From Escherichia phage vB_EcoM-G28: a DNA stretch of 64,000 bases. A model generated the notes under the pieces. The model did no database searches, was not told where the DNA came from, and saw only the letters and a list, made by a program, of their open reading frames with translations. The stretch is from sequence record NC_054916.1; one strand, given 5' to 3'. How positions within the stretch are numbered: position 1 is the first letter of the stretch; each line of letters starts with the position of its first letter. The translations under genes were made by a program, and so were the position numbers. This document shows, one piece after another, positions 41,343-43,376 of this stretch.

Positions 41343-41839
41343 AAAGTTTTAATAACCTCTATAATATCGTCTTGAGAAAGACCGTTAATTAAAATATGAT
41401 GTTCAGCTGGAGATTTAGAAATTTTAAAGCATGCCTCAACATCTTCTGCCATATCCGATGCACTACGATTTGGATTACTAATTCCAAGACGATGTTTTCC
41501 CGTCAAAGGATTAACGATGATGTAGCATTTACAGCTATTAATGTGAACATTAGGTTGAGTCTGATTAATGAACACATCACAATCATATTTCGCAAGCTGA
41601 TTTTCTAAAAAGACTTTCATCTCCTCAACCGCATCAGGAAGCATATCACGGGCTTGCTCAAGACGACGATTTCGATATTCTTTGATGGTCGTTTTCCGCT
41701 TAACTTGCTTAGCTAAATCTTTCTTAAGATCGGTGATATATCCAACTCGACGATTTCCTTTGAATACAGAAATCCCATCTGTAGTATCACCGTATGCTTC
41801 AACGACCATCTCAGTAGTAATAAGCTGCAAATCCATCAT
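41333..41839 (-). CDS. alc: Alc (host transcription shut-off protein)
   Basis: 168 aa; position between rnlA and the pseT block as in T4. Confidence 0.75.
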   Translation of the reverse strand: MMDLQLITTEMVVEAYGDTTDGISVFKGNRRVGYITDLKKDLAKQVKRKTTIKEYRNRRLEQARDMLPDAVEEMKVFLENQLAKYDCDVFINQTQPNVHINSCKCYIIVNPLTGKHRLGISNPNRSASDMAEDVEACFKISKSPAEHHILINGLSQDDIIEVIKTLCM

Positions 41840-41843
41840 AAAG

Positions 41844-41897
41844 TCCTCATGTTATGTCAGTAAGATTATTATAACACAACACGAGGGACTTGTAAAC
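41844..41897 (-). promoter_or_regulatory. Early promoter plus leader module for alc (copy 1)
   Basis: Identical 54-mer to 26329..26382. Confidence 0.6.
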
Positions 41898-41998
41898 AGC
41901 TTAGTATCCTTCTGGGATAAATTTTTTATAATTTTTCAAAAAATTCTGTTCGATTTCACACATGACCTTCTCTTGACTATCGTATCCTTGGTAGAGGC

Positions 41999-42190
41999 TC
42001 ATGATGATACCGAACAGATGTTCCATTCCAGCACCTTTAGCAACACCCGCTTAACTTGCTTAGCTAAATCTTTCTTAAGATCGGTGATATATCCAACTCG
42101 ACGATTTCCTTTGAATACAGAAATCCCATCTGTAGTATCACCGTATGCTTCAACGACCATCTCAGTAGTAATAAGCTGCAAATCCATCAT
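41999..42190 (-). pseudogene. Chimeric ORF created by the duplication (alc N-terminal 48 codons fused out of frame to an rnlA 3' fragment)
   Basis: 63-aa product starts MMDLQLITTEMVVEAYGD identical to Alc, then diverges at the duplication junction. Confidence 0.75.
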
Positions 42191-42194
42191 AAAG

Positions 42195-42248
42195 TCCTCA
42201 TGTTATGTCAGTAAGATTATTATAACACAACACGAGGGACTTGTAAAC
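42195..42248 (-). promoter_or_regulatory. Early promoter plus leader module, duplicated copy
   Basis: Third identical copy of the 54-mer, inside duplication copy 2. Confidence 0.55.
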
Positions 42249-42251
42249 AGC

Positions 42252-43376
42252 TTAGTATCCTTCTGGGATAAATTTTTTATAATTTTTCAAAAAATTCTGT
42301 TCGATTTCACACATGACCTTCTCTTGACTATCGTATCCTTGGTAGAGGCTCATGATGATACCGAACAGATGTTCCATTCCAGCACCTTTAGCAACACCTT
42401 GCGCTTCCATCGCATAAGTCTTTCTATCTTTGCCGCAATGCTTATTGTGACAGTCAAGAACTAAAAACAGAGCTCGGTCTAAGTACTTCAGATAAGTCGT
42501 TTCAAATGCTTCAATTTTTCTATACGAGTATTCATCATCAGCATACATTGCTTTAAGATCATCTGATGCACCATCAATAATAGTCTTAAACAATTTTTCT
42601 GGATTATCTAACGAACTTTTTGTACTATGAAGAGACACGTACCAGTCAGACTTAATTTTAAAATGAGAACCATCTTTCATCACAGCAACATAGCCTTCGA
42701 TGTTTTCTGCATTTTTAGCTTCTTCAACCCATTTAGGACTATCAATTTCGTATCGTTCAACTAGATATGGACGAAGAACAGCATCTTTATAAATATCATC
42801 ATATGAAATGTATTCGCCTGTTTCATTTTCACGAATATTCAATAAAATGATTTTCATCTCTTGATAAGCAAGAACGATTCTATTTGTCGGAGCGACGAAT
42901 TCAAAGTTAGCAGTAAATCCATCTTCGGCTAATTCTTTAAGTCTATCGCGCAACTGATGATGATTAATATTCATCAAAATTCCATTAGCCATTAAAGCCT
43001 GTTCGGATTTGATTGAACCCTTTGATTTGAACAGAATTTCATCACCGTCTAAATAAGTTGATACCAAAGACCCATCTTCTTTTGTTAGAATGTAATCAAC
43101 ATCATTTAAATCGATATTCATCGTGAATGGATTTTCATTCAAGTTAAAAAACTTTTCCATGGGACGAGAGGCAATTCTTACTGGTTTTTCTCCATCCATT
43201 TCAAACATGATTCCACGACATTCCAATGCGTCTGGAAGTAACCAATCAGAATAAGATGCATAATTATATGAGAAAATTCTGTAAGTTCTTCCAGATGCAC
43301 TTACATCATCCGAGTAAAAAAACTTACGCTGTGAATCCTTACATAGTTCCATTAAATTGTTAAAAAGTTCTTGCAT
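42252..43376 (-). CDS. rnlA: RNA ligase 1 (gene 63)
   Basis: 374 aa from [11 protein letters not shown] (ORF track extends 12 codons upstream to 43412); active-site lysine context TKEDGSL. Confidence 0.9.

Follow-up and report, generated by a model that had tools for sequence, protein, structure and literature searches.

The genome record of Escherichia phage vB_EcoM-G28 (GenBank MG867727, DSM 103876, 170,121 bp) holds a perfect tandem repeat of 351 bp across the junction of rnlA and alc. The repeat lies within the 64,000-nucleotide stretch of DNA analysed here (the window), whose matching GenBank proteins fall between AVH86023 and AVH86060. This raises the question as to whether the phage itself has recently duplicated the segment, or whether the second copy came about when the genome was put together from sequencing reads. 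A preliminary description, made from the letters alone, had named both origins: a very recent illegitimate recombination or slippage event, or an assembly artefact.

Two identical copies and their joint

Direct letter-by-letter comparison of positions 41697-42047 with 42048-42398 gives two head-to-tail copies of 351 bp with 0 mismatches, and Tandem Repeats Finder reports a period of 351, 2.0 copies, 100% matches and 0 indels. The claim that the copies are identical, with zero divergence, thus holds, and the base mismatch that the preliminary description had named as a ground for refuting it was looked for and is not there (351/351 identical). With respect to minus-strand transcription, copy 1 (41697..42047, entered without strand) is the downstream copy, and copy 2 (42048..42398, likewise) is the upstream copy, which runs into full-length rnlA. 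The 351-bp duplication is not a product of chance, since the sole other exact repeat of at least 25 bp on either strand of the 64-kb window is a 54-mer that itself lies inside the 351-bp unit.

The novel joint, at which AGCAACACC meets CGCTTAAC, is at 42047..42048 (plus strand). The relation s[i]=s[i+351] holds over 41696..42047 (352 positions), so that the microhomology at the joint is exactly 1 bp, as had been proposed, and is a C. In a simulation of random joints at 351-bp spacing in this window, microhomology was 0 bp in 51%, 1 bp in 29% and at least 2 bp in 20%; as 49% of the simulated joints show 1 bp or more, a single shared base is what an arbitrary joint yields. The closest 5-bp match at the joint, CGCTT, sits 3 bp out of register.

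Genes and reading frames at the repeat

Both genes that the repeat touches lie on the minus strand, as do all genes here. The first, rnlA (42252..43376, minus strand; RNA ligase 1, gp63), encodes 374 aa with Pfam domains RNA_lig_T4_1 (PF09511) and T4_Rnl1_C (PF20819), and the second, alc (41333..41839, minus strand), encodes 168 aa matching Pfam ALC (PF17527, E=4e-92), the inhibitor of host transcription; in the annotation of the T4 record, Alc attenuates transcription elongation on cytosine-containing DNA. The matches of Alc (PF17527) and RnlA (PF09511, PF20819) are full-length and above the curated cut-off, in agreement with the identities first assigned to the two genes. Further features on the minus strand are denA (43429-43863) and nrdB (43869-45083), and downstream of alc follow the spanin genes pseT.3 and pseT.2 and then pseT. 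Of the nucleotides of the unit, 147 come from rnlA (its last 48 codons with the stop), 61 from the space between the genes and 143 from alc (47 codons and 2 nt more), which matches the earlier reading of it as the end of rnlA, a 61-bp promoter and leader, and about 47 codons of alc. That both genes stay intact was also correctly noted, yet is uninformative: any tandem duplication keeps one intact copy of the genes that span its ends, so the intactness of rnlA and alc says nothing on selection.

The two partial genes that had been described at the repeat are likewise present in the open reading frames and the Pfam matches. A chimeric ORF of 63 aa (41999..42190, minus strand) joins Alc residues 1-47 to a 16-residue out-of-frame tail from the rnlA 3' fragment; its residues 2-48 match Pfam ALC, and it has its own copy of the promoter and a Shine-Dalgarno sequence. 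The orphan rnlA 3' fragment (41901..42047, minus strand) comprises 48 codons plus the stop, matches positions 83-122 of T4_Rnl1_C, and includes an in-frame 41-aa ORF (41901-42026). On the opposite strand, an antisense ORF of 260 aa (41682-42464, plus strand) covers both copies. It exists only because the length of the unit is divisible by 3 (117 codons) and the frame is free of stops; it is almost certainly spurious, though a gene caller could pick it up.

A 243-aa ORF (45047-45778, minus strand) occupies the space from nrdB to nrdA and overlaps the nrdB ORF, as listed, at the TTG start of the latter; relatives have at this position either a homing-endonuclease-like gene of 243-244 aa with a faint match to the NUMOD1 type, or none, and this presence or absence marks it as a variable mobile insert. 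A weak 21-bp tandem repeat (40420-40459; 2 copies, 85% matches, score 57) is found inside a 100-aa ORF (40167-40469) that is 100 aa, 106 aa or absent in relatives. Finally, tandem paralogues of Alt-like ADP-ribosyltransferases (26382-28439 and 28443-30539, minus strand) are full-length at 685 and 698 aa and 41% identical, and this pair, which neighbours the region under study, is a genuine ancient tandem duplication.

Copy number at the rnlA-alc junction in relatives and databases

The DNA of the window is that of a Tequatrovirus; its identity is about 96.5% with the RB3 group across 20 kb and about 98% with the nearest relatives around the unit, and it is collinear with T4. Alignment to T4 and related genomes, which the preliminary description had put forward as a check, gives a single copy in the relatives listed: a 2101-bp query returned 495 related phage records, and the matches listed all cover 1750 bp of it. 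Contigs that carry identical proteins agree with this. Identical RnlA occurs in 24 other contigs and identical Alc in 23, and those listed that reach the rnlA-alc junction are all single copy, as are the listed contigs with identical PseT.3 that reach it; the spacing of rnlA and alc in contigs with identical Alc, RnlA or PseT.3 is 61-64 nt. The IMG/VR contigs that cover the junction are single copy as well.

The joint itself was not recovered anywhere. A 50-bp probe across it has no match in 50,697 phage records, even as a 28-mer; a 40-mer over it is absent from IMG/VR, JGI metagenomes and GTDB genomes; and a 200-bp probe over it has no match in PLSDB plasmids or E. coli genomes. In all, neither the relatives (about 500 phage genomes and about 30 contigs) nor four large collections contain it. 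A protein look-up in an index of 153 billion genes returned no record of the exact chimeric 63-aa product. A search by exact proteins for an independent assembly of vB_EcoM-G28 gave no record for gp34 and gp35, and PseT and NrdA only from NCBI, not from Logan; no record other than that of this phage has these PseT and NrdA sequences. A literature search on known duplications of alc or rnlA, and on the assembler used, found nothing useful.

A repeated early-promoter cassette at the centre of the unit

The preliminary description had inferred that the repeat adds a second promoter copy, and a near-consensus early promoter does occur twice. It reads TTTACA-17-TATAAT with an upstream TG (11/12 consensus positions) in both copies, and a GAGGA Shine-Dalgarno sequence lies 3' of it in the rnlA-alc intergenic region. 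No terminator is predicted in the region or between the copies, and no stem-loop was detected there. The promoter and leader form a 54-bp cassette, GTTTACAAGTCCCTCGTGTTGTGTTATAATAATCTTACTGACATAACATGAGGA, which is the 54-mer mentioned above and has the layout GTTTAC-17-TATAAT ... GAGGA. Its exact copies, all on the minus strand, are at 42195..42248 (upstream copy), at 41844..41897 (downstream copy) and at 26329..26382, where the third copy precedes an alt.-3-like gene; the cassette thus drives this gene as well as alc.

The cassette lies at the centre of the unit, between flanks of 147 and 150 bp, so that the geometry of the repeat is 147 + 54 + 150 bp. A random 351-bp segment of the window would include the cassette at all in about 0.5% of cases; of the placements that do include it, about 4/298, or about 1.3%, are centred to within 3 bp, in an argument that is post hoc. 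From containment and centring together, the cassette, in which repeat and promoter coincide, is causally tied to the duplication.

The same element is found in other phages. T4 carries both copies, at alc and at alt.-3, with 53/54 identity, and PP01 and ZCEC15 have the identical 54-mer at alc; the cassette pair is natural. The exact 54-mer occurs in about 40 phage records, in the matches listed at the alt/alt.-3 locus, and most relatives examined read TATAGT where vB_EcoM-G28 has TATAAT. The cassette looks like a PeSL-type conserved regulatory element that evolves in concert. Gene conversion of the alc promoter to the alt.-3 form in vB_EcoM-G28 alone was at first suggested by 23 relatives with G at cassette position 29, most of them also at position 32, and is ruled out by the presence of the same 54-mer at alc in PP01 and ZCEC15.

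A further property of the cassette concerns assembly. In a Logan contig (ERR11594214, k=31) the first letters are exactly the final 30 nt of the cassette, that is, k-1, and a SPAdes contig (ENA ERZ13616793 NODE_19349) begins 55 nt into it, which equals the cassette plus 1 nt. As these independent Logan and ENA contigs start at the cassette, the cassette at alc is a systematic assembly breakpoint in T4-like genomes. Only 5 IMG/VR contigs match the region, and none of them ends at the 54-bp repeat.

Assembly of the genome record

According to its authors, the vB_EcoM-G28 genome is circularly permuted and T4-like; it was sequenced on a MiSeq (2 x 300 bp), assembled into one contig and turned by hand to follow the gene order of T4 (Korf et al. 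2020, Viruses 12:1470, PMC7768485). The same paper makes no mention of a duplication, of trimming, of a dot-plot check or of the assembler (PMC7768485). The Phage Annotation Guide (Turner et al. 2021, PMC8785237) advises that permuted genomes be rotated into line with the type virus, and it also warns of untrimmed terminal overlap, by which a contig exceeds 100% of the genome. The numbering of protein accessions in the record offers a trace of how the repeat was annotated: from pseT.3 (AVH86052) to nrdA (AVH86060) there are seven CDSs between the two, where five genes are expected, namely alc, rnlA, denA, nrdB and the 243-aa ORF. This gap suggests that about two spurious CDSs have been annotated within the duplicated region.

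Origin of the repeat

We consider the 351-bp tandem repeat to be probably an artefact of assembly closure, an untrimmed overlap of contig ends rather than a biological duplication, and the second copy is most likely absent from the phage DNA. The raw contig would have run slightly past 100% of the genome, so that its ends had 351 bp in common. The circle would have been broken at the alc early promoter because the 54-bp cassette, with a further copy elsewhere in the genome, makes a node in the assembly graph. Once the contig had been opened at the T4 start and its former ends joined untrimmed, the overlap would have become an internal, perfect, two-copy tandem repeat; closure at the cassette node, with both contig ends reaching a similar distance beyond it, would give the centring. 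We infer that the raw contig ends lay here and were left untrimmed. The published workflow did rotate a single contig to T4 order, and several observations favour the same origin: there are exactly two copies with perfect identity, the duplication is unique among the relatives searched, the homology at the joint is at chance level where documented T4 events have 2-10 bp, and the unit has at its centre a repeat where assemblers break contigs, as seen in the contigs from elsewhere. Some features run against an artefact. A de Bruijn closure overlap is normally k bases (at most 127), and 351 bp is not a usual assembler k; compared with reads of 2 x 300 bp, no specific assembler model or read layout was found from which the flanks of 147 and 150 bp could be derived. 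Assemblers collapse tandem repeats more often than they create them. Moreover, there is no second duplication at 26.3 kb, as would be expected if breaks at both 54-bp repeats had been joined untrimmed, so the artefact model needs a single closure point.

The main alternative, which we regard as unlikely, is a genuine and very recent tandem duplication in the vB_EcoM-G28 stock, made by illegitimate, essentially homology-free recombination, by slippage or by topoisomerase-mediated joining, with a plaque bottleneck or selection bringing it to fixation. Tandem duplications do arise in T4-type phages, with T4 and T6 readily forming segmental amplifications that include a 718-bp unit truncating a gene, and the present unit carries a complete and strong consensus-like early promoter with its Shine-Dalgarno sequence, which under a strict pattern is the case for about 2.5% of random 351-bp segments in the window; both points count against an artefact. 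A repeat of 351 bp is within what paired 2 x 300-bp reads could resolve, its length is unusual as an assembler k, and with no terminator predicted between the copies a genuine arrangement would be transcriptionally functional. Against this stand the 1-bp microhomology, which is at chance level and below the 2-10 bp of T4 events, the absence of the duplication from every relative searched, and the fact that the genome authors did not report it (PMC7768485). The unit holds no complete gene, so there would be no dosage benefit beyond the promoter, and selection for the promoter explains only its containment in the unit; the centring on the 54-bp repeat (about 1.3%) is left unexplained by selection. 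T4 recombines efficiently between repeats of a few hundred base pairs, and an unselected 351-bp duplication should therefore be unstable and lost at a measurable rate. Taken to its full consequence, and likewise unlikely in our judgement, this alternative would have G28 recently duplicating a 351-bp segment centred on the alc -10 element through an essentially homology-free joint, unlike the known T4 amplifications, to gain tandem early promoters and an expressed 63-aa Alc fragment, in a promoter-level 'accordion' that might be adaptive. It is also very improbable that the duplication is real only in a subpopulation of the lysate and that the assembler happened to report the duplicated allele; T4-type amplifications do vary in copy number within populations, but the objections from microhomology and geometry apply here as they do to a fixed duplication. 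Recombination between the repeated early-promoter cassettes, as in the modular shuffling that PeSL-type cassettes are reported to mediate in T4-type genomes (PMC2839356, PMC4122927), has hardly any probability left: the window does hold three exact 54-bp cassettes, but the end points of the repeat are in unique coding sequence, at distances of 147 and 150 bp from the cassette, and the segment gained or lost by a crossover between the cassettes at 26.3 kb and 41.8 kb would measure 15.5 kb instead of 351 bp. This route is thus excluded by where the joint lies. Of the two origins in the preliminary description, then, the anatomy common to both stands, the assembly artefact is favoured by rotation, joint and centring, and recombination or slippage is disfavoured.

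Implications

If the repeat is an artefact, the GenBank/RefSeq genome of vB_EcoM-G28 is 351 bp too long, at 170,121 bp rather than 169,770 bp, and the two or so spurious CDSs suggested by the accession numbering would spread into protein databases. The phage has been used in therapy-oriented cocktails. As an artefact, the repeat is a textbook untrimmed contig overlap and no biological feature, and the value of recognising it lies in RefSeq curation. The case also provides a signature for such artefacts, namely a rotated, circularly permuted assembly with a perfect repeat of two copies whose unit has a short genomic repeat at its centre.

If the duplication is real, on the other hand, two strong early promoters 351 bp apart would serve alc, the spanin genes pseT.3 and pseT.2, and pseT. 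The upstream transcript would encode the 63-aa Alc fragment and, past the rnlA fragment and the second promoter, continue into alc, pseT.3, pseT.2 and pseT, with up to about two-fold more early transcription of alc and the genes downstream of it, in addition to the predicted truncated Alc. It would then be a natural case of a duplicated promoter in a T-even phage, joined unusually without homology, and would hold modest interest for the study of how phage gene expression evolves.

Comparison with known systems

As a real event, the repeat would fall within the known tandem segmental duplications of T-even phages, yet fail on microhomology. The joints of the T4 dmd-tifA amplifications typically have 6-10 bp of microhomology (Srikant et al. 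2022, eLife, PMC9391042), and the 718-bp tRNA-Tyr/segB tandem repeat of T6 also has microhomology at its boundary (Nat Commun 2026, PMC13096335). Like the repeat described here, the T4 dmd-tifA and T6 718-bp amplifications are head-to-tail in a T-even genome, and their units can cut a gene and leave a truncated copy. They have joints of 6-10 bp, whole genes under dosage selection, many copies and verification by PCR or long reads, whereas the vB_EcoM-G28 unit has a 1-bp joint, no whole gene and two copies, and is known from the deposited sequence alone. Measured against T4-type segmental amplification, a tandem unit is present, and the boundary repeats are 1 bp instead of 2-10 bp; with regard to dosage selection, the unit has a complete early promoter and no complete gene. 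The rII tandem duplications of T4, as far as they are quoted in a later paper, involve 2-10 bp of homology (Kumagai et al. 1993, cited in PMC9391042); they are spontaneous tandem duplications with very short homology, as here, and in that account their units are much larger.

Two other comparisons concern the elements within and around the repeat. PeSL cassettes (Arbiol et al. 2010, PMC2839356; Comeau et al. 2014, PMC4122927) resemble the 54-bp element of vB_EcoM-G28 in being a conserved early-promoter cassette at several loci, but the duplication ends outside the cassette, so that the joint is not inside a promoter cassette as in that system, and no stem-loop or terminator was detected. The T4 record has one alt together with alt.-1 and alt.-2, which its annotation treats as remnants of an old duplication affecting the 5' part of alt. 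This is likewise a partial-gene tandem duplication in the same region of a T-even genome; unlike the 351-bp repeat, it is ancient, diverged and common to relatives.

The repeat also resembles the untrimmed terminal overlap described for phage assemblies (PMC8785237), with which it shares perfect identity, two copies, an arbitrary joint and a permuted genome re-ordered to a reference start. It differs from the usual case in being internal rather than terminal, as rotation would give, and in its length of 351 bp as against a typical k-mer length. The features that mark such an overlap are found together here: two identical copies, a genome that is permuted and was rotated, a joint seen nowhere else in the collections searched, and a closure that falls at a site where contigs break.
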